This document shows, in pieces, positions 20,596 through 60,376 of a stretch of DNA of 64,000 bases (within the stretch, counting starts at the first letter, position 1; every line of letters begins with the position of its first letter). The stretch is taken from contig CALCQI010000029.1 of assembly GCA_937897635.1 (NCBI GenBank), forward strand, positions 15,748-79,747, given 5' to 3'. The translations under genes and the position numbers were made by a program. This stretch comes from an uncultured Peptococcaceae bacterium (lineage in GTDB: Bacteria; Bacillota; Dehalobacteriia; UBA4068; UBA4997). A model generated the notes under the pieces. It was not told where the DNA came from. It made no database searches and saw only the letters and a list, made by a program, of their open reading frames with translations.

Positions 20596-22281
20596 CTATT
20601 TATCACCTTTGAATAAAATCATTTCATCAATAGAACGTCCGCATAAAACCACCGGATAAACCATTTCCTCGCAGCTTACTTTACATTCTATCAAGGTTGC
20701 TTTATTATTATCCATGGCTTCTGCCAAAATTTCCTGGATCTGCCCCGTATGCTCCATGGTATAAGTTTCCATGCCATAAGCTTGGGCAAGCTTAATAAAA
20801 TCGGGGTTGCCGGGCATATCTACAGAATAATAATTTTCTTTCATATAGAATTTTTGCAGCTGCCTTACCATACCCAAATTATTGTTATTGAAAAGCAATA
20901 CCTTAATGGGCAAATTCTCCGCAGAGGCAGTAGCAAGTTCATTAAAAGTCATTTGGAAACTGCCATCACCTGTTACGCAAAAAACTATGGATTCAGGGCT
21001 TGCCAACTGCGCTCCTACAGCAGCAGGCAAACCATAGCCCATGGTTCCCAAACCACCCGAGCTGATAAAGCCTTTGGCCCTGCGGGCTTTATAGAACTGC
21101 GCAGCTACCATTTGGTGCTGGCCTACGTCTGTTGTAACTATAACATTGTCCCTAGTCATTTCCGAAAGCTGATGCAAAACCTTGCGCATAGTTAAAGCCT
21201 CGTCATCCTTGCCTTCATAATATACACCCTGCTCAGTAGGACGCCACGCTTCCACCTGCGCCAGCCATTCGGGATGTGAAGCTTGGTTCAAGCACTTAAG
21301 CATATCCTTGATAATAGAAGCCGCATCTCCCACAATAGGTACTTTGGGAATGATGTTCTTACCTATTTCCGCAGGATCTACATCTATATGGATGATTTGC
21401 GCATTAGATGCAAAATCAGGCATATTGCTGGTTACCCTATCATCAAAACGTGCGCCAATTGCCAAAAGCACATCACAATTACAAACAGCTATATTAGCCG
21501 CAGGGCAGCCATGTATACCTACCATACCCATATAAAGATTGTTTTTGTAGGGAAAAGCTCCTTTGCCCATCAAGGTAACAGCTACAGGAGCATCCAAACG
21601 CTCCGACAGTTCCAATAACAAGGCTTCCGCACCTGAATGAACTATACCACCACCCACATAAATAACGGGTTTTTTAGACTGATTCAAAATTTTGCAGGCC
21701 AGCTTTATTTGCGAGGGGTGCCCCTTAATAGTTGGTTTATAACCAGGCAAATCGATTTGTCCGGGGATTTTGGCAGTACACTCACTATCTGCAACATCCT
21801 TGGGTAAGTCTATAAGTACAGGCCCCGGACGACCCGTACTTGCTATATGAAATGCCTCCCGTACTATTTGCGGGATCTGGTTTGCTTCCGTTACCAAATA
21901 ATTATGTTTGGTGATAGGCTTGGTTATACCTGTTATATCCACTTCCTGGAAAGCATCCGTACCCACAATACTTTTCGGTACCTGGCCTGTGATCGCAACC
22001 ATAGGTATGGAGTCCATAAAAGCCGTGGCAATACCTGTAACCAAATTGGTTGCCCCCGGGCCGGAGGTAGCAATACATACCCCGGGCATACCCGCTATAC
22101 GGGCATAACCGCTGGCAGCATGAGCCGCTCCCTGTTCTGTACGAGTTAAAACATTATGAATGGATGAATGGCGCAGAGCTTCATATAAACCCAATACAGT
22201 ACCGCCGGGGTAACCGAAAACGGTTTTTACTCCTTCATATTCCAAACATTTTATCAATGCTTCCGAACCTTTCATCGTCAA
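20596..22281 (-). CDS. ilvB: Acetolactate synthase large subunit (ThDP-dependent)
   Basis: 561 aa; ThDP-binding motif GDGSFQM..N and a typical N-terminus (SEALIKCLEYEGV). Confidence 0.9.
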   Translation of the reverse strand: MTMKGSEALIKCLEYEGVKTVFGYPGGTVLGLYEALRHSSIHNVLTRTEQGAAHAASGYARIAGMPGVCIATSGPGATNLVTGIATAFMDSIPMVAITGQVPKSIVGTDAFQEVDITGITKPITKHNYLVTEANQIPQIVREAFHIASTGRPGPVLIDLPKDVADSECTAKIPGQIDLPGYKPTIKGHPSQIKLACKILNQSKKPVIYVGGGIVHSGAEALLLELSERLDAPVAVTLMGKGAFPYKNNLYMGMVGIHGCPAANIAVCNCDVLLAIGARFDDRVTSNMPDFASNAQIIHIDVDPAEIGKNIIPKVPIVGDAASIIKDMLKCLNQASHPEWLAQVEAWRPTEQGVYYEGKDDEALTMRKVLHQLSEMTRDNVIVTTDVGQHQMVAAQFYKARRAKGFISSGGLGTMGYGLPAAVGAQLASPESIVFCVTGDGSFQMTFNELATASAENLPIKVLLFNNNNLGMVRQLQKFYMKENYYSVDMPGNPDFIKLAQAYGMETYTMEHTGQIQEILAEAMDNNKATLIECKVSCEEMVYPVVLCGRSIDEMILFKGDK

Positions 22282-22787: not shown

Positions 22788-24476
22788 CTATTTTACAGTA
22801 ACAGCTCCTGTGGAAGCTGAAGTTACCCTGCCCGCATATTTTGCTAAATAACCCTTAGTGATTTTAGGCTCTGGGCAAACCCATTTGGCTTTACGCTCAG
22901 CTAGAATTTTTTCATCCACCAAAAGCTCTAATTTACCGTTTTCAATATCAACGTTGATAATGTCGCCTTCCTCTACCAAACCTATAAGACCACCTTCGGC
23001 AGCTTCGGGAGAAACATGGCCTATAGAAGCACCGCGAGTGGCACCTGAAAAACGTCCATCTGTGATTAAGGCCACGCTGGAACCTAGACCCATGCCTTGT
23101 ACGGCAGAAGTTGGGGTGAGCATTTCCCTCATACCGGGGCCGCCTTTGGGCCCTTCATAGCGAATTACTATAACATCACCCTCTTTGATACCGCCTGCCA
23201 TAATAACTTCCACGGCTTCCTCCTCACCGTTGAACACACGGGCAGGGCCTTGGTGCTGCATCATTTCAGGCACTACACCCGCTTTTTTCACTACAGCACC
23301 ATCGGGAGCCAAATTCCCCCTTAAAATAGCCAGGCCGCCTTTTTGGCTGTAAGCTGTTTCCTTGCTGCGGATCACATCATGATCCAAAATTTGCGCGCCT
23401 TTAATGTTAGCTTTTATGGTTTTACCTGTTACCGTCATTATAGAAGTATCAATAAGAGCATTCCTATCCAGCTCTGCCATTAAGGCACTTAAACCACCTG
23501 CTGCGTGCAAGTCCTGAATATGGTAAGTACCTGAAGGAGCAAGCTTGCAAAGATGGGGTGTTACAGCTCCTATTTCGTTTATCATATCTAAATTTATTTT
23601 TACACCTGCCTCATGAGCAATGGCAGGAAGATGTAATATAGTATTGGTTGAACAACCCAAAGCCATATCGGCAATTACTGCATTCCTGAAAGAAGCCGCA
23701 GTCATGATCTGGGAAGGCCTTACATCATCTTCCAAAAGTTCTATCACTTTCATGCCCGCCTCTTTAGCTAAACGGATACGAGCGGCTTCAATAGCAGGTA
23801 TAGTACCGTTACCTGGTAAACCCATGCCTAAAACTTCTGTCATACAGTTCATGGAATTAGCTGTAAACATACCCGAACAGGAACCACAGCCAGGGCAGCA
23901 ATTTTCTTCTATTTTTTGTAATTCTTCAGCATCTATTTTATTAACGCTATAAGCACCTACCGCCTCAAAAGTAGAGTTAAGATCCAGTACCTTGCCTTTA
24001 TAACTGCCTGTGAGCATAGGGCCGCCACTTACAAAAATACTGGGCAGATCCAAACGGGCAGCTGCCATCAACATACCCGGTACTACTTTATCGCAATTTG
24101 GGATAAACACAAGCGCGTCAAAAGCGTGGGCAAGTGCCATAACTTCAATGGAATCAGCAATAAGTTCACGGCTGGCCAAAGAATACTTCATCCCCTCATG
24201 GCCCATGGCAATACCATCACAAACCGCTATAGCCGGAAATTCCAAGGGTGTACCTCCTGCCATACGCACGCCTGCTTTAACAGCCTCAGCCAACTGGTGT
24301 AAATGAATATGACCCGGCACTACCTCATTAAAAGAATTTACTATACCCACTAAAGGAAGCTCAATTTCTTCTTTGGTAAGGCCCAAAGCATAAAGCAGGG
24401 AACGCTGAGGCGCCCTCATAAAACCATCTTTCATTATATCACTTTTCATTTTTGGTTTGCCGCAATCACAACTCAT
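22788..24476 (-). CDS. ilvD: Dihydroxy-acid dehydratase
   Basis: IlvD/EDD family with a Cys-ligand region (CPGCGSC). SD GGGAGG 8 nt before the ATG at 24476; the ORF track extends to a TTG at 24482. Confidence 0.9.
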
Positions 24477-24482
24477 TTTCAA

Positions 24483-24775
24483 AACCTCCCGTATAATTAT
24501 AAAATCATAAAAGCTGGGCTAATATAAAAAACCCCTCATCCCCCAATCAGGGACGAAAGGTTATTCCGTGGTACCACCCCACTTGCCATGCAAAAAACAC
24601 AGCCTCTTAACAAGGATAACGCCCTTTAACGGCTTTTCCTACTGGATTTCAGAAAAGCAACTCCAGAGGGACACCAAAACCCTGCTGATATGGGCTCACA
24701 CCGTACCCCACTCGCTGTAAAAGCAAATAGCTTCAGCCTGTCTCTATCATCGTTATTAGCTATAAAATAATAACT
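24483..24775 (-). promoter_or_regulatory. T-box riboswitch leader upstream of ilvD-ilvN-ilvB
   Basis: Minus strand shows an AGAGA box, then AGCGAGUGGGGUACGGUGUGAGCCC (near-identical to the glyQS leader distal motif in this window), then the T-box sequence GUGGGGUGGUACCACGG (+ coords 24566..24580), a hairpin and UUUUUU just before the ilvD SD. Confidence 0.6.
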
Positions 24776-35318: not shown

Positions 35319-37115
35319 TTAGTTTACCAAATACTCCGCTTTCAAAAGCCTTTGATAAAGCTGTTCATCTACTTTTGCTTCCACATAAATGCCTTCATTG
35401 CGATATTCCTCCAAGCTGATAGCGGCATCATTATGAAGTGCCGCAAGCATTGAAGCCTTGCTATAAGGCAACAGCACTTTTACAAAATGAGCGGCTCCCG
35501 GCAGCATTTCCGTGATTTCAGCCAAAAGCTCAGCTAAGCCGATCACCTTTTTAGCGGAAATAGCTACAGAATGCTCATAATGACCCAATAATCTTTTTAA
35601 GTAGCCCTCGCTTGTAATAGTATCCACTTTATTTATGGCAATAACAGTAGGCTTGTGTTCAGCTTTAAGATAAGACAAAACCTCTGTTACGGCCTTTACC
35701 TGCTCTTCCACTTCACTACCCGAACCATCCAAAACGTGCACCAACAAATCGGCTTCCACAACCTCTTCCAAAGTGGCTCGGAAAGCCGCTACCAAATGAT
35801 GCGGCAGCTTACGGATAAAACCCACTGTATCCGTAAGCAGTGCCTGACGGTTATCGGGCAGGGTAATTTTTCTGGTAGTAGTATCTAGTGTGGCAAAAAG
35901 TTTGTCCTCCGCCATTACATCAGAACCCGTTAAGGCATTCAGCAATGTGCTTTTGCCTGCATTTGTATAACCTACCAAAGCAATTACAGGTATGCTTTGG
36001 CCGGTTCTTTGTTCACGATGCAATTTACGGGTTTTAACTACTTGCTCCAAACGGCTTTCCAGCTCCGTTATCCTTTTGCGGATATTCCTGCGGTCAGCCT
36101 CCAGCTTGGTTTCGCCGGGACCCCTTGTACCTATGCCACCTCCCAAACGGGAAAGCACCTCGCCCTGCCCTACCAAGCGTGGCATCATATAGCGTAGCTG
36201 TGCTAATTCAACCTGGAGCTTGCCTTCATTGCTTTTGGCTCTGCCTGCAAAAATATCCAAAATAAGCATGGAACGGTCTATAATAGCTTTACCTGTTGTC
36301 TCCTCCAAGTTTCTGATCTGTACAGGAGAAAGTTCATCATCAAAAATAATGCTGTCTATACCTAAAATTTGGCATTTAAAGCGCAGTTCTTCCAGTTTGC
36401 CTTTGCCTATATAGGTTGCAGCATCAGGTACGGAACGTTTTTGCAGCATATTATCTACCACTACCAACCCTGCCGTATCAGCAAGCTGTTTCAGTTCCGC
36501 CAAACTGTATGAAGACATGGCCTCAGTGTCCCTGCCGCTTATAGCTACCAAAAGCGCCTTGGGAGCATCTTTGATTTCCTCATGAAATTCCAGTTTTTTT
36601 TCGGCTTCCTTTTCGATAAGCGAAACCTGTGCCTGCATATCTAAATTTAAGATACTTCCCAGATTAGGGTAAAGCAAAGGTTGTGGCAAATTTTTACCTA
36701 AAATCCCCCAAGCCAAACCCACATTAGTGGTTTTGCCTTCCGCATCCACACCTATTGCAACTATGCAATCAAAGCGTAAAAGCGGTAAAGCCGTTAAATC
36801 CACCATACTTAAAGTACCATCACCGCCCGGATGTGTATGAATACAGCGAAACCCCGAAAGACGGCTTTTAGCTTCTCTGCCTTTTAAGGCTTCCAAAGAA
36901 ACAGAATGATTATCCCCTACTTCAACATGGTTGATATGGCCTTTACGATCCACATAAAGCAAGATTTCCTTATTGATATTCGCTGTAATAACAGCAAGCT
37001 CATCCGCCAGTTCTTTAGAAACTATTTGGTTGCCCTGTAAAGTAAACTCTGTGAGCTTTTCAATTTTAGACAACCAAAACTTGCTTATACCACTAACATT
37101 TCCCTTGATTTCCAT
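35319..37115 (-). CDS. hflX: GTPase HflX with an N-terminal JAMM/MPN+-like extension
   Basis: HflX N/M domains and G1 GYTNAGKST, G3 DTVGF, G4 NKVD. SD GGGGAGG 4-5 nt before the ATG at 37115; the ORF track runs to a TTG at 37157. The extra N-terminus carries E..HTHPGGDGTLSMVD. Confidence 0.85.
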   Translation of the reverse strand: MEIKGNVSGISKFWLSKIEKLTEFTLQGNQIVSKELADELAVITANINKEILLYVDRKGHINHVEVGDNHSVSLEALKGREAKSRLSGFRCIHTHPGGDGTLSMVDLTALPLLRFDCIVAIGVDAEGKTTNVGLAWGILGKNLPQPLLYPNLGSILNLDMQAQVSLIEKEAEKKLEFHEEIKDAPKALLVAISGRDTEAMSSYSLAELKQLADTAGLVVVDNMLQKRSVPDAATYIGKGKLEELRFKCQILGIDSIIFDDELSPVQIRNLEETTGKAIIDRSMLILDIFAGRAKSNEGKLQVELAQLRYMMPRLVGQGEVLSRLGGGIGTRGPGETKLEADRRNIRKRITELESRLEQVVKTRKLHREQRTGQSIPVIALVGYTNAGKSTLLNALTGSDVMAEDKLFATLDTTTRKITLPDNRQALLTDTVGFIRKLPHHLVAAFRATLEEVVEADLLVHVLDGSGSEVEEQVKAVTEVLSYLKAEHKPTVIAINKVDTITSEGYLKRLLGHYEHSVAISAKKVIGLAELLAEITEMLPGAAHFVKVLLPYSKASMLAALHNDAAISLEEYRNEGIYVEAKVDEQLYQRLLKAEYLVN

Positions 37116-37162
37116 AAAACCTCCCCAAAACCATAAATCATATTCTAAATTGAACAAAAAAT

Positions 37163-50216: not shown

Positions 50217-51233
50217 CTATACCCATTTACGGTCATAGGCTTCGATTATTTTTTGTACAAGCGGATGCCTTACTACATCCAAACGGGTCAAATAACAAAA
50301 TGACAAGCCTTCCACATCCTTAAGCTTTCTTTCCGCATCTATCAAGCCTGAACGCTGATCGGAAGGCAGATCTATTTGGGTTATATCGCCTGTGATAACA
50401 GCTTTTGAACCTATACCCATGCGGGTAAGAAACATTTTCATTTGCGGAGGCGTGGTATTTTGAGCCTCATCCAAAATAATGAACGCTTCCTCCAATGTTC
50501 TGCCGCGCATATAGGCAAGCGGCACTACCTCTATGATATTGCGTTCTATATATTTGGCGGCCATTTCCGTACCTAAAATATCATCCAAAGCATCATAGAT
50601 TGGCCTTAAATAAGGGTTTACCTTTTCCTGCATATCACCCGGTAAAAAGCCCAGTTTTTCCCCTGCCTCTACAGCAGGGCGTACCAATACTATGCGGATA
50701 ACTTCTTTTGCTTTAAGAGCGGCAACGGCCTGAACCACTGCCAAGTAGGTTTTGCCCGTACCTGCGGGGCCTATGCCAAAGGTAATATCATGCTTTCTTA
50801 TTGCATCTATATAATAACGCTGACCCAGAGTTTTAGCTTTTATTTGTTTACCCCTGGGTGTTACATAAATTGTTTTTGTAAGCTCGCCCATATCCTGGTT
50901 TTGCCGGTGGTGGTCCAGATTAAGAGCATAACTTACGGAAGCAGAGGTAATGTTTATACCTGCTTCCGCCAATACTAATAAATGATGAAATACTTTTTCA
51001 GCCTTACCTGTTTGTTCAGGCGTTCCTTTTATAACTATTTCACCACCACGGGCAATTATTTGGCTTTTTGTAAGTTTTTGGATTAAGTTTATGTGTTCTT
51101 CACGCTCACCGGATATATTGACAATGTGCTTATTGGGTATAGTTATTTTAACCTCGGCTTTTGGGTTATTTGCTGTAGTTACATCATGCAGCGGTGTTTT
51201 TGACAAATTTATCCCTCCCAATAAATTCTGCAC
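50217..51233 (-). CDS. phoH: PhoH-like ATPase (PhoH/YbeZ)
   Basis: 338 aa; Walker A GPAGTGKTYLA. Confidence 0.85.
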   Translation of the reverse strand: MQNLLGGINLSKTPLHDVTTANNPKAEVKITIPNKHIVNISGEREEHINLIQKLTKSQIIARGGEIVIKGTPEQTGKAEKVFHHLLVLAEAGINITSASVSYALNLDHHRQNQDMGELTKTIYVTPRGKQIKAKTLGQRYYIDAIRKHDITFGIGPAGTGKTYLAVVQAVAALKAKEVIRIVLVRPAVEAGEKLGFLPGDMQEKVNPYLRPIYDALDDILGTEMAAKYIERNIIEVVPLAYMRGRTLEEAFIILDEAQNTTPPQMKMFLTRMGIGSKAVITGDITQIDLPSDQRSGLIDAERKLKDVEGLSFCYLTRLDVVRHPLVQKIIEAYDRKWV

Positions 51234-51319: not shown

Positions 51320-52495
51320 CTATTTTCTGATACCTATTTCCTCAATACATTCCCAAATTACCTGTACTTGATAAATCCCCCCATCTGACGTTAAAAGCTT
51401 TTGGGTTTCCTTGGTTATTTCAGCATTTATAGGTATACTTTTTTTTACAGCGGCAGCAGCACGTTCCAAGGCTTCCAGTTTAGCCTCTTCTTCACTTATT
51501 TCCCTGTAAAAGGTATATGTTGGCTGATAACTTAATTTAGTTATTTCGACGGGCAAAGGTATATTCCTCCATAAATAAAGGCCCTGTACAGAGGTATCTA
51601 CTAAATTTATCTTGTAATTATCTCCTGTTTGGGCTTTCTTATCCGCCCACAGTAAAATTTTCTTATCATTATCAGGGCTGCTCAAATAATATTCGTTGAT
51701 AATTTTGCCGCTGTTTTGAGTGATTTCCTCTTTAGTTAAACACTCACCAAAACCGTAGTACCATACTCTGGCCTTGATAATGGCATCCGCTATACCGTCT
51801 TCAAGGGGTTCCACAAGCACCTGGCCTTTGCTTACGGTATCGCCTTCTTTAACTTTAGGCTCACCGTGCATGATCAAAATTTCCTCTATAAGGCCATCCT
51901 TAGCTGCCAATATAGAGCCTTGGCTTTTGGTTTTATCTTCAGGAGCCAGTACGGTTTTTTCCGCAACATTTATATGTATCATAGTTCCTTGCCTAGTAAT
52001 ATTGATCCAGGCCAAATTAGGCAAAGCCTTTTTAATGGCTTTCTCCATGGCGGTAAAATCCGCCTCTTTAATCCTGGCACCCGCATAGATTCCATAATCT
52101 TGCGCTACCAGTTTTATTTCTTGTTCTTTTAATACTACAAGTTCCTCTTTGCTTTCCACACCCACAAAAAACACAAAACCCGAAAGTATATATAAACCTG
52201 CCACAAAAATAAAAATACCTACAGGTAGCATGATCCTTTTTTTCATATATTTCAGGGAAAAGTGAAAACCTTTGCCGTAAACTATCCTGAAACTACTTTT
52301 GGATTTATGAGCCAAATGCCTTAGTTCACCCAACTGTTTATAGTACAGCTTGGCTTCTACAGTACCATTGGGATACCATATAACATCATATACATCGATG
52401 CCGCTTTGCAATGCCAAATTCAACAAGGGTTCCGCACCTTTAGTAATGCGGATTTTTACATAACCCAACAACCAGCCCCAAATTTGCGCAAGCAA
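51320..52495 (-). CDS. yqfD: Sporulation protein YqfD
   Basis: 391 aa; YqfD-like N-terminus followed by a TM segment. Follows yqfC as in Bacillus. Confidence 0.7.
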   Translation of the reverse strand: MLAQIWGWLLGYVKIRITKGAEPLLNLALQSGIDVYDVIWYPNGTVEAKLYYKQLGELRHLAHKSKSSFRIVYGKGFHFSLKYMKKRIMLPVGIFIFVAGLYILSGFVFFVGVESKEELVVLKEQEIKLVAQDYGIYAGARIKEADFTAMEKAIKKALPNLAWINITRQGTMIHINVAEKTVLAPEDKTKSQGSILAAKDGLIEEILIMHGEPKVKEGDTVSKGQVLVEPLEDGIADAIIKARVWYYGFGECLTKEEITQNSGKIINEYYLSSPDNDKKILLWADKKAQTGDNYKINLVDTSVQGLYLWRNIPLPVEITKLSYQPTYTFYREISEEEAKLEALERAAAAVKKSIPINAEITKETQKLLTSDGGIYQVQVIWECIEEIGIRK

Positions 52496-52497
52496 AC

Positions 52498-52806
52498 CTA
52501 TACCCCCTCATCATCCAAAAAAATACCTATTTCCTTGATATTGCCTTCTATAAGTATTTCCTCGCTGCTTAAATTACGCAGTTGCAGCTTAACGCCTTTT
52601 GCGGAAACCATACCCTTATGTACCCGCAAACGTATTTCTTCCTGCGTATATTTTATAATACCCTTATGGTTTTCCACCCCAAGGCGTAAATTGCCAACCA
52701 AAGTTATACGCGGCAGATCCAAAGCCAATTCTTCCGGCAACTCCAAAAAATCGGCAAAAGCCGTGCGGATCTTTTCACCTTTGCTCTTCTTATATTTTAC
52801 AGACAT
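52498..52806 (-). CDS. yqfC: Sporulation protein YqfC
   Basis: 102 aa; YqfC-like (LPRITLVGN..L.VENHKGII). Confidence 0.65.
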   Translation of the reverse strand: MSVKYKKSKGEKIRTAFADFLELPEELALDLPRITLVGNLRLGVENHKGIIKYTQEEIRLRVHKGMVSAKGVKLQLRNLSSEEILIEGNIKEIGIFLDDEGV

Positions 52807-52913: not shown

Positions 52914-53906
52914 ATGACCAAAGTTTTGATTCTAACTTCAAAAAAACGCGTTAAAAAATATAGTAAGCCTGAAGATATACCCGAAAACTGGCAAATAGTG
53001 TTTTTGGATAAGGCCTATACCGAAGATGAAGCATTAAGAACAGGTGCCGATGCCGATTTTATTTTGGTAGATGTTATTTACCCTGTTTCAGCAAATTTGA
53101 TAGCCAAAATGCCCAACCTTAAGCTTATTCACACCGAAGGCGTAGGCTATGACCGCATTAATACTAACGCCGCTGCCCAAAGAGGTATTTATGTTTGTAA
53201 TAATGCGGGGGTTAACGCCGCTTCAGTAGCTGAACAAACCATACTGCTCATGCTTGCGCTTTTGCGCAGACTTTTGGAAGGTGATAAAGAAGTGCGCTTA
53301 GGCAGGCTTTCCGAAACCAAGTCTCGCTTTATCCTTGATGGTATTACAGAACTGGGCTCTTGCCATGTGGGGCTTATAGGCTTGGGGGCCATAGGTTTGG
53401 AAACCGCCAAAAGGCTGAATGCTTTCGGTTGTAAAATAAGCTACTATGATATAAAAAGAGCCCCTGCCGAAACAGAAGCTGAACATGGTTTAACTTTTCT
53501 GCCTTTAAAAGATTTGTTAAGCGTGGCGGAAATAATAAGCCTACACTTGCCCGTTTTGCCTGATACCGTAAATTTGATAGATGCCGAGATGTTAAAAATA
53601 ATGAAGCCAAATACTCTTTTAATCAACACCGCACGGGGAAAAATAATAGACCAAAAAGCGTTGGCTGATGCACTGGTAAACGGTAATATAAAAGGCGCAG
53701 GGCTGGATACTTTATACCCCGAACCAACAGGCAAAAACCATCCACTTTTGAATTTGCCTGAAAGTGTTCAATATAAGCTGGTATTTTCCCCGCATATCGG
53801 CGGCACTACCAACCAGGACTTTGAGCGTGCCCACCATAATGCCTGGCTGAATATGCAAAAAGTTGCTAACGGTGAACGACCAAACAATATAGTTAACGGG
53901 CTGTAA
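52914..53906 (+). CDS. D-isomer-specific 2-hydroxyacid dehydrogenase (NAD-binding)
   Basis: 330 aa; Rossmann motif GLIGLGAIGLETAKRL and a catalytic R..E..H arrangement. Confidence 0.75.
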   Translation: MTKVLILTSKKRVKKYSKPEDIPENWQIVFLDKAYTEDEALRTGADADFILVDVIYPVSANLIAKMPNLKLIHTEGVGYDRINTNAAAQRGIYVCNNAGVNAASVAEQTILLMLALLRRLLEGDKEVRLGRLSETKSRFILDGITELGSCHVGLIGLGAIGLETAKRLNAFGCKISYYDIKRAPAETEAEHGLTFLPLKDLLSVAEIISLHLPVLPDTVNLIDAEMLKIMKPNTLLINTARGKIIDQKALADALVNGNIKGAGLDTLYPEPTGKNHPLLNLPESVQYKLVFSPHIGGTTNQDFERAHHNAWLNMQKVANGERPNNIVNGL

Positions 53907-53934: not shown

Positions 53935-53977
53935 AAAAGCTGTCCATTAAAGGTTTTTAACCTAATGAACAGCTTTT
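53935..53977. terminator. Bidirectional terminator between the dehydrogenase and the deacetylase genes
   Basis: AAAAGCTGTCCATT...AATGAACAGCTTTTTT, 13-bp stem with one mismatch and flanking A/T runs. Confidence 0.55.
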
Positions 53978-53995: not shown

Positions 53996-55333
53996 CTATA
54001 TCAGCTTAGCCAAAGCAATGATAGCAGTTTTATGGTCTATAACATTGCCCTTTACCGCGGCATTCCTGCCGAAAGCTTTTTCACAAGCATTGTTAAAGGT
54101 TTGAGCATTAACTTTAGCTTCCATATTGAATTTTTTGCCCTGCAAAGGCAAATAGCCTTTATCCGCCGCCGCTTTAATGGCACCGCTGTAAGGATGTTTT
54201 ATTTTTACATTACCGAAAAAACCGGCAGGGTTTTTCTTTAAGGCTTCAAAGCGTATAGCAAAACCCTCATTACCACACAGCATCATGGCAAGTTCACCCA
54301 TAATCAAGGGCATTTCGGGCTTTATTTTATTATCACGGTAAACTATAACATAACCCTTTTCTACCAGTTTAAGTGCAGCTTCATATATTTCATCTTTTTT
54401 ACCTATATCAGTAAAAGGCGAATATTCGCAAAGCTCTTCTACAGTTACTACTTTGTAGCCGTATTGGTTTAGGATTTCCAATTGTTGGGGCAAGCCATCG
54501 GCAATGGGGGTACGGCGTGCCATATTATAGCCGTCCTTTTGGAAAATTATTTGGCCACACAAAGCATTGGGATCTTCCGCAAGCAGTTTGGCAATGTGCT
54601 CATAGGTTGCCTTGACTTCCTCTTCATAAGTGGCACAGGGCAGCCAACCTGCACCATCATAGCTTGCTGCCATATATTGATAGCCCATTTTTTCATAGGC
54701 ATCGTAACTTGTAAAACCACCTTCTATTTTATCTACATAATGCGGCGGACGGGAAAATTTCATTTCATAATTAAATTTTTCTTTTAAGAGATCATGTAAT
54801 TTTTGCAGATCGTCCACTACCTCATCTACATTTTGCAGGTAGGTGCGTTTACCGTAAACCAAAGGCTTTTTGCCAAACAGCACATGAGAATAGGTGTGGT
54901 TGGTTATTTGGTGGCCGCCAGACAAAATACGGGCTACCAATTCCGGGCAATGCACAGCGCCCCCCAGCTTATCCTCATTTATATCAGGATAATGGTCAAA
55001 TTTCACACCGCCCCAAGAAGCGGAACCATGCTCGCCGGCAACATCAGGGTAGTTATTTGAAGTATCACCAACTATATCGAAAGTGCCCCTAGCCTTATAT
55101 TTTTCCAGGCTCTGCAAAAGTGAAAGCGTGAGCGGCGCCCCATTTATATCATTGGAACAGGGCTTATTCATGGGGCCGTCATCGAAGGTCATCGCACATA
55201 CTTTTTCATCAGTTTGCACGCGTTCCAGCCTTCTTACCTTGGAAAGATAAACAGGCTTATTGCCTTCAATAACTTTTTTGAATTTTCTTTTGGTCTTTTT
55301 AGCAAGCCCTATGCCTGTAGTAAGTAAAGACAT
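53996..55333 (-). CDS. NodB-family polysaccharide deacetylase with a C-terminal repeat extension; no signal peptide
   Basis: 445 aa; NodB motifs TFDDGP, HTYSH, RPPHY. Hydrophilic Lys-rich N-terminus. C-terminal ~170 aa holds two weakly SLH-like repeats. Confidence 0.75.
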   Translation of the reverse strand: MSLLTTGIGLAKKTKRKFKKVIEGNKPVYLSKVRRLERVQTDEKVCAMTFDDGPMNKPCSNDINGAPLTLSLLQSLEKYKARGTFDIVGDTSNNYPDVAGEHGSASWGGVKFDHYPDINEDKLGGAVHCPELVARILSGGHQITNHTYSHVLFGKKPLVYGKRTYLQNVDEVVDDLQKLHDLLKEKFNYEMKFSRPPHYVDKIEGGFTSYDAYEKMGYQYMAASYDGAGWLPCATYEEEVKATYEHIAKLLAEDPNALCGQIIFQKDGYNMARRTPIADGLPQQLEILNQYGYKVVTVEELCEYSPFTDIGKKDEIYEAALKLVEKGYVIVYRDNKIKPEMPLIMGELAMMLCGNEGFAIRFEALKKNPAGFFGNVKIKHPYSGAIKAAADKGYLPLQGKKFNMEAKVNAQTFNNACEKAFGRNAAVKGNVIDHKTAIIALAKLI

Positions 55334-55346
55334 TTTATTTCCCCCA

Positions 55347-56093
55347 TTACTTTTTAATAATATCCAACATTACACAATAACCCCAATAGGCCATGGAGCG
55401 GCAAATTTTTAAGGTATTTCTGCCACGGCAGGCTTTATAAAACTGGGATACACCTTTGCGCCTGCGTGGGGTGTGTTTTTGGATGACCCCCACACAATCA
55501 CCGTTTTTGACTGCTGTTTTCAAACTTTGCAGGCTAATCTCTTCGGTATTTATTAAAGTGTAGGCATTGCCCACCTCATATTTGGAGTGAGCATCACTGC
55601 CGCCTGTTTGCAAAAGCTTGTGGGCTTTGGCATAAGACAAAGCTTCCTGATTGGCATTGGGATTTTTAAAATAAGCTCTGGCATTTGCAGTTTCAATACC
55701 ATCTACATATTTGAAAAAATCAGGTTTTTCCTGAAAACGCCCTGCTTTTTGAAATGGATGCGCCGCTACCACTATACCGCCTTTTTTACTAATTTCCGCT
55801 GCCGCCTTACGGCCTGCAGGCAGGCCTTTAGCAGTAAGCTTTGCCATATCTAAAGGCTCGTCCAAAAACAAGCCTAAAATATGCCCGTCCGTTGTGGAAA
55901 CCTCACAAGCAGGAATAAGCAAAAGCTCCGTATCGGTATGCATGAAATTTGCAGGCAGGTAAGAAAGATTATGGTCCGCAACTGCTATGGCAGCCAAACC
56001 ACAGGCTTTAGCTGCCATAACGATTTCAGGCAAGCTATGTACGCCATCATTGGATTTATTGGTATGAATGTGCAAATCGGCTTTTATTTCCAT
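55347..56093 (-). CDS. PHP-domain metal-dependent phosphoesterase
   Basis: 248 aa; HIHTNKSNDG..ADHN..H..GGSDAH PHP metal ligands. Cytoplasmic. Confidence 0.65.
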   Translation of the reverse strand: MEIKADLHIHTNKSNDGVHSLPEIVMAAKACGLAAIAVADHNLSYLPANFMHTDTELLLIPACEVSTTDGHILGLFLDEPLDMAKLTAKGLPAGRKAAAEISKKGGIVVAAHPFQKAGRFQEKPDFFKYVDGIETANARAYFKNPNANQEALSYAKAHKLLQTGGSDAHSKYEVGNAYTLINTEEISLQSLKTAVKNGDCVGVIQKHTPRRRKGVSQFYKACRGRNTLKICRSMAYWGYCVMLDIIKK

Positions 56094-56111
56094 ATTTTTA
56101 CCTACTTATAG

Positions 56112-57332
56112 CTACTTATTTTTGGCTTTGACAAAAAGGGATTTAAAATAGACCCGTGCTGGCTTATTGTCCCCTTTGGATTTTATACCGTCTTTCACCT
56201 TAGGGTTAAGCATATCCGCAATACCGCCAAAAACCTTGCTCAATTTACCTGCTTTGGCATAACCGATAACAGCTATTTTATCGCTGGTACCGTAAATCAT
56301 TTTGGTTTGCCACTTATAAGTGCTTGGTTCTATGTGTATGGCCTTTTCAGGGTTAGCCATGTTATAACCAAGCGCAAACCAGTTATAGCTAAAATTAGTT
56401 TGAGCTATCCTGGTAAGGTTATAAGAACCCCAAACTCTGGGGTTTATCTCCAGCATTTTGAAAATGCCATCCTCCCCCTCTTTAGTGGTTTTGAATTCAA
56501 GCATGGCAATACCGCTGTAATCCATGGCTTTTATCATCTTTTTTGCATAACCTTCCAGAATATCTATCTTCACGCGCATGCAGCAGCTTGAAGGACCGCC
56601 AGTAACCGGGTATTCCCTGAGCCTTTTGTGGCAGATAAAATCTATTATTTCCCCCTCTTTTGCCAATACGGAAATACCATAACCGCCACCGGCCAAGTAT
56701 TCCTGAACAATTGGGTAATCTTTTTCCAAATCATAAAAAAAGTTGAAGCGATCCTTGAATTTTGCCTTGCTGTGGCAAATTGCATAACGGTCTTTGGCTT
56801 TGATGCCAAACTTTTCACCGCACACGGGCTTCACCACACAAGGCAAAGGTACCGAATTGAAATATTCCTCCATGTTTTGGCCAAGCTTTACAGAATATTC
56901 ACGGGGCACAGGTATATTCAGCTTTTCTGCCAAAGCTACTACCTGTTTTTTATCATTTGCCATATCCAATTGTGCTTGGCTGGGTATATATAAACCACAG
57001 ATTTCACGAAAACGCTCTGTAACCTGTGGTTCGGCCAATAAAGCCAGGGTTTTGGCACCAACGGGAATAAGCACGCATTTTTCCCCGTTTTTTTGGGAAA
57101 GTTTTGCACATAAACCATAAATAGCTTCCAAATAGTCTTCGGGCTTGATATTCATATTAGGCAACCAAACCCTTTCTTTAGGGTATTTGGAATAAAAACC
57201 CAAAGGCTCCATAAAAGTTTCTGTACCACGCTCATCACTTTGAGCAACTGCTACATTGATACCTCTTGCCACCAAATCCCTAATTATAGCAAGCGACATT
57301 TTATATTTAACATCTGTAATTACCGCAAACAT
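56112..57332 (-). CDS. ATP-grasp-fold ligase
   Basis: 406 aa; ATP-grasp core (VVKP..GG.G...EYL.GG..G.S, LEINPR). SD AGGAGGA before the ATG. Confidence 0.6.
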   Translation of the reverse strand: MFAVITDVKYKMSLAIIRDLVARGINVAVAQSDERGTETFMEPLGFYSKYPKERVWLPNMNIKPEDYLEAIYGLCAKLSQKNGEKCVLIPVGAKTLALLAEPQVTERFREICGLYIPSQAQLDMANDKKQVVALAEKLNIPVPREYSVKLGQNMEEYFNSVPLPCVVKPVCGEKFGIKAKDRYAICHSKAKFKDRFNFFYDLEKDYPIVQEYLAGGGYGISVLAKEGEIIDFICHKRLREYPVTGGPSSCCMRVKIDILEGYAKKMIKAMDYSGIAMLEFKTTKEGEDGIFKMLEINPRVWGSYNLTRIAQTNFSYNWFALGYNMANPEKAIHIEPSTYKWQTKMIYGTSDKIAVIGYAKAGKLSKVFGGIADMLNPKVKDGIKSKGDNKPARVYFKSLFVKAKNK

Positions 57333-57364: not shown

Positions 57365-57393
57365 GTGTGGATGTAGAAAAACTACATCCACAC
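57365..57393. terminator. Perfect 12-bp hairpin between the yqfB-position gene and the ATP-grasp gene
   Basis: GTGTGGATGTAG-AAAAA-CTACATCCACAC. Clean T-run only on the + strand; on the minus strand it sits just upstream of the ATP-grasp SD. Confidence 0.4.
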
Positions 57394-57402
57394 TTTTAAA
57401 AA

Positions 57403-57987
57403 TTAAATTAAACGCCTTCTTTTCCTTAAAGCCAAAGGAGGCCCCAAAAGCTCCGACATAACTATGATCTGTTTTATATCCTGCATAGTTTTGCCTTCAA
57501 AAACATGATGAGTATTTTCCTCCTCAACTATTTTTTCAAGAAATACTTTTGGTGATGGTTCGAAAGTTACCGTTGCCGTTTTTGCGGAGGGCAAAACAGT
57601 TTTGTTTATTATGGGTTTTGGTTCCGTCTTGGAGGCAACAGCTAAAGGCTCTTGTAAAATTATTGGCTCACGTTTTTCTTTTTGAATAGGTTCGGGACGT
57701 ATCATATCCTGCCATTCCGCTTTACCTGCAGCTTCCGAAGCCGCCTTTTTCATGGCTTCCTCAAGCCATTTAGGTAGGCCTACAGACTTTTCCTGCATTG
57801 GCCTTTCAACAGGTTCAACAGAAGGTTTTTGCCTGCCCAGTTCTTCATCATAATCATATTCTTCGTAATTGTATTCTTGGTAATCTTCAGGCTTTTGTGT
57901 AGTTTTAGGCGGCTGTTTCTTTTGATTTTTCTTGCCAAAAATTTCCGTCAAGGCTACAATAAGGGCTAAAATGACCCATATTTCCAT
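57403..57987 (-). CDS. Membrane-anchored hypothetical protein at the yqfB position of the floA operon
   Basis: 194 aa; N-terminal TM helix, acidic Tyr/Glu-rich region, Pro/Lys-rich linker. SD GGAGGTGA 7 nt before the ATG. Confidence 0.4.
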   Translation of the reverse strand: MEIWVILALIVALTEIFGKKNQKKQPPKTTQKPEDYQEYNYEEYDYDEELGRQKPSVEPVERPMQEKSVGLPKWLEEAMKKAASEAAGKAEWQDMIRPEPIQKEKREPIILQEPLAVASKTEPKPIINKTVLPSAKTATVTFEPSPKVFLEKIVEEENTHHVFEGKTMQDIKQIIVMSELLGPPLALRKRRRLI

Positions 57988-58022: not shown

Positions 58023-59015
58023 TTATTTATCGGCATCTGTTGAAGACCCTTGAGAAATACCTGTACGCATATTAGTATCCGCCTGGATATTTTGCATCTG
58101 AAAATAATCCATTACACCAAGCCTGCCGTTACGGAAAGCTTCTGCCATAGCAAGCGGCACTTCAGCTTCCGCTTCCACAACTTTAGCACGCATAGATTTG
58201 ATTTGAGCCATCATTTCCTGCTCGGTAGCTACAGCCATAGCACGACGTTCTTCCGCCTTGGCCTGGGCAATCTTCTTATCGGCCTCTGCCTGGTCGGTTT
58301 GCAGTTGGGCACCTATATTCCTGCCGATATCAACATCTGCTATATCAATAGAGAGTATTTCAAAAGCTGTGCCTGCATCCAAGCCTTTTGCCAATACAGT
58401 ACGAGAAATGGAATCGGGGTTTTCCAATACTTCATTATGGCTATTGGAAGAACCAACAGTGGTAACTATACCTTCACCAACACGGGCAATAACAGTTTCC
58501 TCGCCCGCACCGCCTACCAAACGGTCAATATTCGCGCGTACAGTCACCCTTGCCCTTACTTTTACTTCAATACCGTTTTTAGCCATAGCGGCAATCACGG
58601 GGGTTTCAATAACTTTGGGATTAACACTCATTTGTACGGCCTGCAAAACATCACGTCCTGCCAGATCAATAGCGGCAGAACGCTCAAAAGGCAAATTGAT
58701 ATTTGCTCTTTCGGAAGCTATCAAGGCATTTACTACCCTATCCACATTACCGCCCGCCAAATAGTGGGCTTCCAACTGGCTTACTTTTACATTCAAACCC
58801 GCTTTTTCCGCCTTGATAAGGGGATTTACTATTTTAGCGGGGCTTACCCTTCTTAAACGCATACCTATCAAATCGATGATACCTACTTTGGCACCTGCTG
58901 CCAAGGCGGATATCCACAAACGTATAGGTACAAAACTGAAAATCATCAGCACCAGAAAAATAACCAGAAGCAGTAAAATTAAACCACCAATATTAAAGCC
59001 TGAAATAAAACCCAT
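58023..59015 (-). CDS. floA: Flotillin-like protein FloA (YqfA, UPF0365)
   Basis: 330 aa; N-terminal TM, SPFH-like body, Ala/Glu-rich coiled coil. Confidence 0.85.
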
Positions 59016-59044: not shown

Positions 59045-60376
59045 TTATTCGTCATCACCTATAGCACGCACTATCACACTGCTGCCATCCACCTTTATAA
59101 CTTTTATTCTTTGCCCTACGGGAATAAAAGATCCTTCTGTAACTACATCTACCCTTAAACCGTTTATATCAACAGCGCCGCTTGGCCTTAAAGGTGTAAG
59201 CACAACACCTATCATACCCAAATAACCGTTCCAATCGGGCGGCTGGCTCAAATAACCTTCATCCGTACCTTCTTTGGTATGCAGTATCAGCTTGTTCCAA
59301 ATCCTTCTGGTTTTACCTACTTTAAGGCTTATAACTACAAGAGCTATCAGCACTATTAACGCTATGCCCAGTTGCAACATGGCTACACCAAAGCTTGGTG
59401 CAACCATTATCACTGCCGCAACCAAACTTATAACGCCTAAAACCCCCGCAACACCAAAACCAGGAATGACAAAAAGCTCTAAGGCCATAAGTACCAGGCT
59501 TAAAACGAACAAGGCAACCGCTATCCAACCCGCATAGCCTGCCATTAAGCCACCCGTAAAATACAAGGTAAGCGCCACTATGCCTATAAAACCCGCTATT
59601 CCGAAACCTGCAAAGAACAATTCCAAAACCAAACCGCTTATGCCAATGGCAAGCAATGCACCCGCTACAGCGGGGCGGGTAAGGAATTGAGACATGGCTT
59701 CTTGGAAAGTTAGATCTATTTTTTCTATTTGCGCATTTTCCAAATCATATTTTACTAAAACATCGTTTAGCGTATTGGCTATACCGTCTGCCATTTTTAA
59801 CTCAACTGCCTGCGCTGCACTTAAAGTTAAAAGTTTATCTTTTTCTATTATTCCCTCTATGGCAATATCACTATCCACCATAGCGGCTGCTGTTAAACCA
59901 TCCCTGCCGTTTTGTTGTGCCGCCGACTTTATTTCCGCCGCAAAGAAGGAAACTATTTTTTCATCCGCTTTTTCATCACCCAGCCTGGGTTCTGCGGCTC
60001 CCATGGTAGCAGAAGGCGACATTACTATTTGATCACAAGCCTGTGCTATTAACGCACCTGCGGAAATGGCCTTACTGTTCACATAACATATAGTATAGAT
60101 AGGTGAATTTGCTATAATATTTTTTATATCCACTGCCGCAGTAGCATAGCCCCCGTAGGTATCCAGTTCTAAAAGCATATAGTCGGCATTTGCCGTCAAG
60201 GCTTCACTATAAGCACGCCCCACATATTCCGTCATACCGCTATCGATATCACCCGCGATTTTGAACCGATAAACAACATCATTGTTTACAGCATCCAATT
60301 CCTGTGCCGCAAGCGCTGAAGATCCAAAAACCACAAGCAATAAACAAATCATAATGACCATTATTTTTTTGGGCAT
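59045..60376 (-). CDS. nfeD: NfeD-family membrane-bound ClpP-class protease (YqeZ)
   Basis: 443 aa; signal peptide, ClpP-like domain, multiple TMs, C-terminal OB-fold. Upstream of floA as in Bacillus. Confidence 0.8.

Follow-up and report, generated by a model that had tools for sequence, protein, structure and literature searches.

Within a 64,000-nucleotide stretch of DNA from an uncultured Peptococcaceae bacterium (assembly GCA_937897635.1, contig CALCQI010000029.1, positions 15,748 to 79,747; the whole of this 64-kb stretch is called the window below), three adjacent genes code for an ATP-grasp carboxylate-amine ligase (56112–57332, 406 amino acids), a PHP-family metallohydrolase of the CehA/McbA type (55347–56093, 248 amino acids) and a NodB-type deacetylase-like protein of carbohydrate esterase family 4 (CE4; 53996–55333, 445 amino acids), all on the minus strand. 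These three genes are one tightly linked operon and functional unit. Amino-sugar de-N-acetylation followed by re-acylation is the best-supported reading of the kind of chemistry involved, of which the trio would be a differing version. We propose, tentatively and with slightly less than even confidence, that the trio is a self-contained operon for the intracellular re-tailoring of an N-acetylated amino sugar.

The genes are co-directional in the order ATP-grasp, PHP, CE4 and are separated by intergenic gaps of only 18 and 13 nucleotides (nt). A first-pass annotation, made from the letters alone, had placed the three open reading frames in just this way and had assigned ATP-grasp, PHP and CE4 domains to them; Pfam and NCBIfam scans agree with these assignments. 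To follow the cassette beyond the window, one genome per GTDB species was scanned. Relatives of the ATP-grasp protein turned up in 420 genomes, and all locus counts given here refer to the best 80 loci. Carriers among these are mostly Oscillospiraceae and other Clostridia, with a genome GC content ranging from 35% to 69%. The PHP gene follows the ATP-grasp gene in 77 of the 80 loci and the CE4 gene is likewise present in 77, on the same strand, in the same order and with short gaps, which is far beyond chance. At one locus (L020), the CE4 gene is missing even though the contig runs well past the site, and no substitute deacetylase lies nearby.

Two proteins of about 650 amino acids (P0016 and P0085) are fusions of the ATP-grasp and PHP proteins. 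At the P0085 locus (L081, 8001–12752), the CE4 gene lies about 1.5 kb downstream of the fusion gene, with a bactofilin and an M23 peptidase gene between them on the opposite strand; these cell-shape and wall-remodelling genes may hint at a role in the envelope. The pairwise-identity matrices of the three proteins correlate with r = 0.84–0.89, a value reached in none of 500 permutations. The first-pass annotation had suggested that the three genes work as one unit and had named a lack of co-conservation in other genomes as the outcome that would speak against this. That outcome did not occur, and the kept order, the fusions and the co-evolution all support its suggestion.

Clustering of all flanking open reading frames of the 80 loci, with the antisense shadow frames of GC-rich genomes set aside, yielded no further conserved partner. 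The most frequent unrelated neighbour was found in 11 loci, and those that recur encode ABC transporters, cysteine desulfurase, a MATE pump and a histidine kinase. FloA, NfeD, YqfC, YqfD and PhoH, which flank the trio in the window, were found near it in none of the 80 loci. Since the gene order is kept while these flanks are not, the trio is not tied to the yqf locus but forms a portable operon.

The ATP-grasp protein has the three-domain ATP-grasp fold. Its only Pfam assignment is a weak match to ATPgrasp_Ter (PF15632; 37.5 bits against a cutoff of 29.1) that covers residues 208–330 only, and every NCBIfam model scores far below its cutoff. No ter gene, as would be expected of a tellurite-resistance neighbourhood, was present among the recurring neighbour families examined in the 80 loci. 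The residues that bind ATP and Mg2+ are invariant in 25 sequences, namely K168 in the VVKP strand, Q210 in the QEY hinge, and E295, N297 and R299 of the E-x-N-x-R motif. The nearest folds are those of PylC, the uncharacterised protein 2pn1 and the L-amino-acid ligases BL00235 and BacD, at identities of 13–21%. Compared with all of these, the ATP-grasp protein has a C-terminal extension of its own (about residues 330–406) and an invariant GGPSSCC loop. It is a family in its own right that is structurally nearest to small-molecule carboxylate-amine ligases, and its predicted activity is carboxylate-amine ligation via an acyl-phosphate, in a superfamily that also includes carboxylate-thiol ligases.

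Distant relatives of the ATP-grasp protein on annotated plasmids (24–27% identity) place this branch in informative gene contexts. The relative from Priestia megaterium aligns over 366 columns with a probability of 99.6%. On plasmid p1 of strain WSH-002 (L086, 7022–11219), it is encoded in an operon with a PIG-L de-N-acetylase for N-acetylglucosamine (GlcNAc), a glycosyltransferase of family 4 (GT4) and a choline/ethanolamine-kinase-like phosphotransferase. This operon is surrounded by spore-coat, DUF4183 and giant-repeat exosporium-type genes, and its make-up suggests a bacillithiol-like route by which a glycoside is tailored for the spore surface. The gene for the relative from Halorussus, which is annotated as 'carboxylate--amine ligase', is part of a GT2/GT4/flippase cluster, and the gene after it codes for a protein with a GINT1_N domain, a Pfam domain named after a glucosamine transferase. 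Owing to these two contexts, the ATP-grasp branch is repeatedly tied to hexosamine and glycan chemistry, and in Priestia the partner is again a sugar de-N-acetylase, this time one of a non-homologous fold (PIG-L). Tailoring of an amino sugar, one of the two kinds of substrate that the first-pass annotation had named, is thus the best reading of the trio.

The PHP protein scores 32.5 bits against PHP, 51.3 bits against PHP_C and 93.3 bits against the NCBIfam CehA/McbA model (NF038032; cutoff 80). Its metal ligands H8, H10, H41, E64, H112, D167 and H169 are invariant in the alignment, and D16 and H71 are kept in at least 90% of sequences, so that the metal centre is intact. By sequence, the nearest solved relative is 3e0f, a putative phosphoesterase (E = 1.3e-6). 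The protein ends in a cationic amphipathic helix with a charge of +3 and a hydrophobic moment in the top 1.8% of its own windows. The C-terminal tail as a whole (about residues 202–248; 55347–55490, minus strand) lies outside the Pfam matches, as PHP and PHP_C cover residues 6–50 and 146–200. It consists of a conserved basic patch, RRRKGxSQ, followed by a conserved Cys-containing amphipathic helix with the consensus Y-x3-C-x-L-x-D.

The CE4 protein is the most conserved of the trio, with a mean pairwise identity of 58%, and matches Pfam Polysacc_deac_1 with 57.3 bits (cutoff 23.1). Its AlphaFold2 model reached a predicted local distance difference test score (pLDDT) of 86. Foldseek matched the catalytic domain (residues 37–304; 54422–55225, minus strand) to the secreted deacetylases of peptidoglycan and chitin, PdaC, Bc1960 and SpPgdA, with E values of ~1e-11, target template-modelling (TM) scores of 0.77–0.84 and identities of 14–21%. 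With these best structural matches it shares CE4 motifs 1 to 3, which read TFDD, H-x3-H and RxPY. All 33 homologs retain D51 as the base, the metal triad D52/H146/H150, and R195, P197 and Y199, and D226 and W230 are equally kept in all 33. Unlike the secreted enzymes, the CE4 protein of the trio has no signal peptide, contains two conserved inserts, has a Lys in place of the acid His (considered below) and is encoded in one operon with cytoplasmic enzymes. The larger insert comprises about 40 residues (88–127, WGG..DHYPD) and is highly conserved, with low model confidence; the second measures about 13 residues, and both flank motif 2.

None of the 33 CE4 homologs has a signal peptide or a hydrophobic N-terminal segment. 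For the three protein families, the median maximum of the Kyte-Doolittle 19-residue window is 1.21, 0.91 and 1.33, which bears out the initial view that the trio lacks signal peptides and transmembrane segments. Instead, residues 2–24 of the CE4 protein (55262–55330, minus strand) form a conserved cationic amphipathic helix, as seen in both alignment and model, with a net charge of +4 and a hydrophobic moment in the top 3.5% of its own windows. This helix may serve as a peripheral membrane anchor.

The C-terminal tail of the CE4 protein (residues 305–445; 53999–54421, minus strand) is SLH-like. Scanned alone, it matches Pfam SLH with 25.4 bits (cutoff 20.8), and 13 of 15 homologs match as well, the best at 2.5e-12. 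The CE4 family profile also matches the SLH structures of V. parvula OmpM1 (8BZ2, 8BYM) and B. anthracis Sap. The residues with which SLH domains bind pyruvylated wall polymer are a Trp, a Gly and the Arg of the TRAE motif (PMC10628300). Like the SLH domains of Sap, SpaA and OmpM, the tail starts with F-x-D and contains a TRGE-like motif. However, whereas such domains usually have three motifs and act outside the cytoplasm, only two motifs are recognisable here, on a protein that has no signal peptide in any of the 33 homologs. The tail, the amphipathic terminal helices and the change of His to Lys in motif 5 had all been overlooked in the first-pass annotation.

In the pathway that we propose, the CE4 protein would de-N-acetylate a substrate that contains a hexosamine. 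The ATP-grasp enzyme would convert a small carboxylic acid, which may be an amino acid, into an acyl-phosphate and join it to the freed amine as an amide, and the PHP metallohydrolase would take a phosphate ester off the donor, the acceptor or the product. We attach no fixed order to these three steps. The lack of export signals, the cationic amphipathic terminal helices and the SLH-like tail of the CE4 protein together suggest that the enzymes act on the inner side of the membrane, where a cell-envelope precursor linked to a lipid or a nucleotide is a possible substrate. Here, the non-canonical SLH-like tail could function as a module for recognition or oligomerisation. What the sequence data establish directly is the operon, its linkage and fusions, the folds, the intact catalytic centres and the promoter type; chemistry, substrate, step order and location are proposals.

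A similar logic is found in NodB and NodA of the rhizobial Nod factor pathway, which, like the trio, pairs an intracellular CE4 enzyme that has no leader with an enzyme for re-acylation of the amine, a role that is putative for the trio. NodB and the CE4 protein share the CE4 fold, the metal triad and the catalytic base. However, the NodB model gives the CE4 protein only 23.9 bits against a cutoff of 240. NodA is an acyltransferase, whereas the partner in the trio is an ATP-grasp ligase, and no NodC-type synthase is linked to the trio. Relative to NodB/NodA, the trio moreover adds the motif-5 Lys in place of His, the SLH-like tail and the PHP partner.

Several observations count against amino-sugar re-tailoring as we have outlined it. 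In motif 5 (LxH) of the CE4 protein, K266 stands in place of the catalytic-acid His in 33 of 33 homologs. Alignment with canonical CE4 enzymes by hhalign (probability 99.4%) places IIFQKDG on VILFHDG, and the His is also present in IVLMHDG; from this alignment it follows that the catalytic-acid His has been replaced by Lys. Given K266, the CE4 protein may catalyse a reaction other than classical de-N-acetylation. The phosphatase activity of the PHP protein is likely but not certain, as the namesakes of the CehA/McbA model are carbamate hydrolases, and the PHP gene is truly absent at three loci (L008, L042 and L072). The idea of membrane-binding helices derives solely from hydrophobic-moment statistics. 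In the SLH-like tail, the equivalents of the sugar-binding Trp and Gly are each found in 0 of 33 homologs; the Arg is kept in 24 of 33 and is a Met in the window copy. In none of the 80 loci does the trio have a linked gene for a glycosyltransferase, a flippase or any other envelope function, which leaves the substrate unconstrained. Finally, the gene contexts that speak for hexosamine chemistry belong to relatives with only ~24–27% identity.

A more specific version of the same pathway, which we consider unlikely, would have the operon install a new N-acyl group, for example an aminoacyl group, on a hexosamine of a cell-wall precursor, either of peptidoglycan or of a secondary wall polymer, at the inner membrane face. 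The CE4 protein would then use its Lys as the catalytic acid, and the cytoplasmic SLH-fold module would read the lipid-linked precursor.

The alternative that survives best, possible but clearly less probable than re-tailoring within a self-contained operon, is that the trio makes or salvages a soluble cytoplasmic metabolite. This could be a glucosamine compound resembling mycothiol or bacillithiol, or an amino sugar recycled from wall turnover. Mycothiol synthesis employs the MshA2 phosphatase, the MshB deacetylase and the MshC ligase, and bacillithiol synthesis the GT4 enzyme BshA together with BshB and BshC. The three activities predicted for the trio fit the middle steps of the mycothiol route, in which a GlcNAc glycoside undergoes the same phosphate removal, de-N-acetylation and ATP-dependent ligation. 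Moreover, the PIG-L and GT4 genes that flank the distant ATP-grasp relative in Priestia give that operon a resemblance to the logic of BshA, BshB and ligase. The nearest ATP-grasp folds all belong to small-molecule enzymes, the CE4 insert 88–127 could cap the active site for a small substrate, and the operon stands alone, with no linked genes for export or polymerisation. Structurally, however, the two kinds of system differ in all three folds. In the trio, a CE4 protein takes the place of the LmbE/PIG-L deacetylase and an ATP-grasp enzyme that of the ligase (tRNA-synthetase-like or BshC), and the phosphatase would be a PHP protein. There is also no linked glycosyltransferase to supply the glycoside needed at the start, and a soluble pathway would not be expected to involve an SLH-like tail and amphipathic terminal helices.

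A role in sporulation had been suggested in the first-pass annotation, which placed the trio in the mother cell on account of the adjoining yqfC and yqfD genes. In this scenario, the trio would modify glycans of the spore cortex, coat or exosporium, and coat deposition from the mother-cell cytoplasm would explain a wall-binding protein without a signal peptide. Leaderless coat proteins with wall-binding LysM domains do exist in SafA and SpoVID, which provide a precedent. The scenario also gains from the position of the trio directly upstream of yqfC/yqfD in this genome and from the Priestia relative, which is situated among plasmid-borne spore-coat and exosporium genes. The transcription signals bear on it in both directions. 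Searching with the pattern TTGACA-17-(TGn)TATAAT at a score of at least 10, we found sigma-A-type promoters with an extended –10 element in 37 of 77 operon upstream regions compared with 9 of 385 random control windows, with the match typically ending about 30 nt before the start codon. Motifs resembling those of sigE were found in 0 and of sigK in 1 of the 77 upstream regions. Judged by sequence, these promoters point to vegetative, housekeeping-type expression.

The copy in the window, on the other hand, has no promoter of its own, as no sigma-A match in the 150 nt upstream scores above 6, and this would be in keeping with expression in the mother cell. A terminator-like hairpin with a 12-bp stem (57365–57393, minus strand; –27.4 kcal/mol, z = –3.6) separates the stop codon of the preceding gene from the ribosome-binding site of the ATP-grasp gene and leaves no room for a promoter between itself and the ATP-grasp gene. 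It is probably where the upstream nfeD-floA operon is leakily terminated or its transcript processed, and the window copy of the trio is probably read through from that operon. The 3' end of the trio operon is marked by a bidirectional intrinsic terminator (53935–53977), composed of an A-run, a stem and a U-run, which the CE4 gene shares with the 2-hydroxyacid dehydrogenase gene on its other side. It folds with –26.5 kcal/mol (z = –5.6), and none of 200 shuffled sequences folds as well.

With sigma-A-type promoters at other loci and the yqf neighbourhood in none of the 80, the mother-cell hypothesis loses its basis. Further, the CE4 protein scores far below the cutoffs of the sporulation deacetylase models (44.7 bits against 237.4 for PdaB, TIGR02764; 20.7 against 298 for PdaA, TIGR02884), and no sporulation gene recurs in the 80 neighbourhoods. 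We therefore regard a sporulation system as improbable.

Five loci (L004, L043, L046, L048 and L060) differ in their upstream regions in that the promoter lies about 90 nt upstream of the ATP-grasp gene, with a site noted about 120 nt upstream of the start. In the GC-rich leaders between promoter and gene, the first hairpin is variable, a (T)ATACTA box is conserved, and a GGGG-loop-CCCC hairpin adjoins the ribosome-binding site. By eye, they may represent a duplicated or degenerate promoter or a small regulatory structure. A riboswitch was considered for the long leaders of some loci and rejected, as no Rfam match was obtained.

Somewhat less probable still than a sporulation system is a scenario in which the CE4-SLH protein is brought to the wall non-classically, for example through lysis or a holin-like system, and deacetylates peptidoglycan or polysaccharide there, with the other two enzymes performing a separate cytoplasmic step. 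In its favour, the closest structural relatives of the CE4 domain are peptidoglycan deacetylases, and the usual partners of SLH domains are extracellular wall polymers (PMC10628300). However, this scenario is at odds with the missing signal peptide in all 33 homologs, with the absence of the canonical sugar-binding Trp and Gly from the tail in 33 of 33, with the missing motif-5 His and with the tight coupling and co-evolution of the CE4 protein with two cytoplasmic enzymes. Nor do phages offer a route, as the scanned viral contigs contained no relative of the cassette and INPHARED gave one weak phage match at 24% identity. PADLOC returned only a 20.6-bit partial match to the N-terminus of the PHP protein, and with these results we rejected a phage, endolysin or defence origin of the cassette.

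That the three genes are neighbours by accident and have unrelated functions would accord with how widespread and functionally diverse each domain family is, but it is in effect refuted by the order kept at 77 of 80 loci across the whole range of GC content, the fusions and the co-evolution.

In the window, the trio is inserted between two conserved blocks, as had been recognised from the start. Family scans confirm NfeD (YqeZ; 59045–60376) and FloA (YqfA; 58023–59015) on one side and YqfC (52498–52806), YqfD (51320–52495) and PhoH (50217–51233) on the other. Together with the gene in the yqfB position, this is the gene order of Bacillus. The yqfB-position gene (57403–57987, minus strand) codes for 194 amino acids with a single N-terminal hydrophobic segment and a middle part rich in Glu, Pro and Lys. 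As the protein matches no Pfam or NCBIfam family, the name 'yqfB' refers to its position alone. A gene for a D-isomer-specific 2-hydroxyacid dehydrogenase (52914–53906, plus strand), whose best NCBIfam match, glyoxylate reductase, is below cutoff, is also inserted here, on the yqfC side of the trio. The first-pass annotation had noted this gene beside the trio and described it as divergent. Its presence is confirmed, but relative to the trio it is convergent, and yqfC is the only neighbour from which it is divergent. We rejected the dehydrogenase as a fourth member of the cassette, since a gene for it occurs within 10 kb in only 2 of the 80 loci, at about 30% identity. A recent horizontal insertion was likewise rejected: the GC content of the trio (0.39–0.44) shows no difference from the flanks, and nothing points to recent foreign DNA.

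The rest of the window contains housekeeping genes. A T-box leader (24546–24759, minus strand; 109.7 bits) lies directly 5' of the genes for dihydroxy-acid dehydratase (22788–24482) and acetolactate synthase (20596–22281), which looks like an ordinary branched-chain amino-acid arrangement. An HflX-type GTPase of 612 amino acids (35319–37157, minus strand) has recognised domains from residue 217 onwards and an N-terminal extension of about 215 residues without a domain match.

The first-pass annotation did not recognise the trio as a described pathway, and full-text literature searches returned no published account of the ATP-grasp/PHP/CE4 combination, with an in-silico mention in the amidoligase survey of Iyer et al. 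(2009) still possible. As far as the searchable literature shows, the cassette is therefore undescribed, although it is present in at least 420 species-level genomes, mostly of Oscillospiraceae and other abundant, poorly studied gut Clostridia. For annotation, the analysis shows that the link of the trio to the adjoining sporulation genes is accidental, and the sporulation angle should be dropped. For enzymology, the trio offers two oddities: a CE4 family with Lys in place of the catalytic His throughout, and an apparently cytoplasmic protein that has no leader and carries an SLH-fold module. If the operon does install a new N-acyl group on a wall-precursor hexosamine, this would be a new and widespread modification of the envelope in Oscillospiraceae and related gut Clostridia. 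Any alteration of an envelope amino sugar would affect the recognition of these commensals by lysozyme, phages and innate immune receptors.

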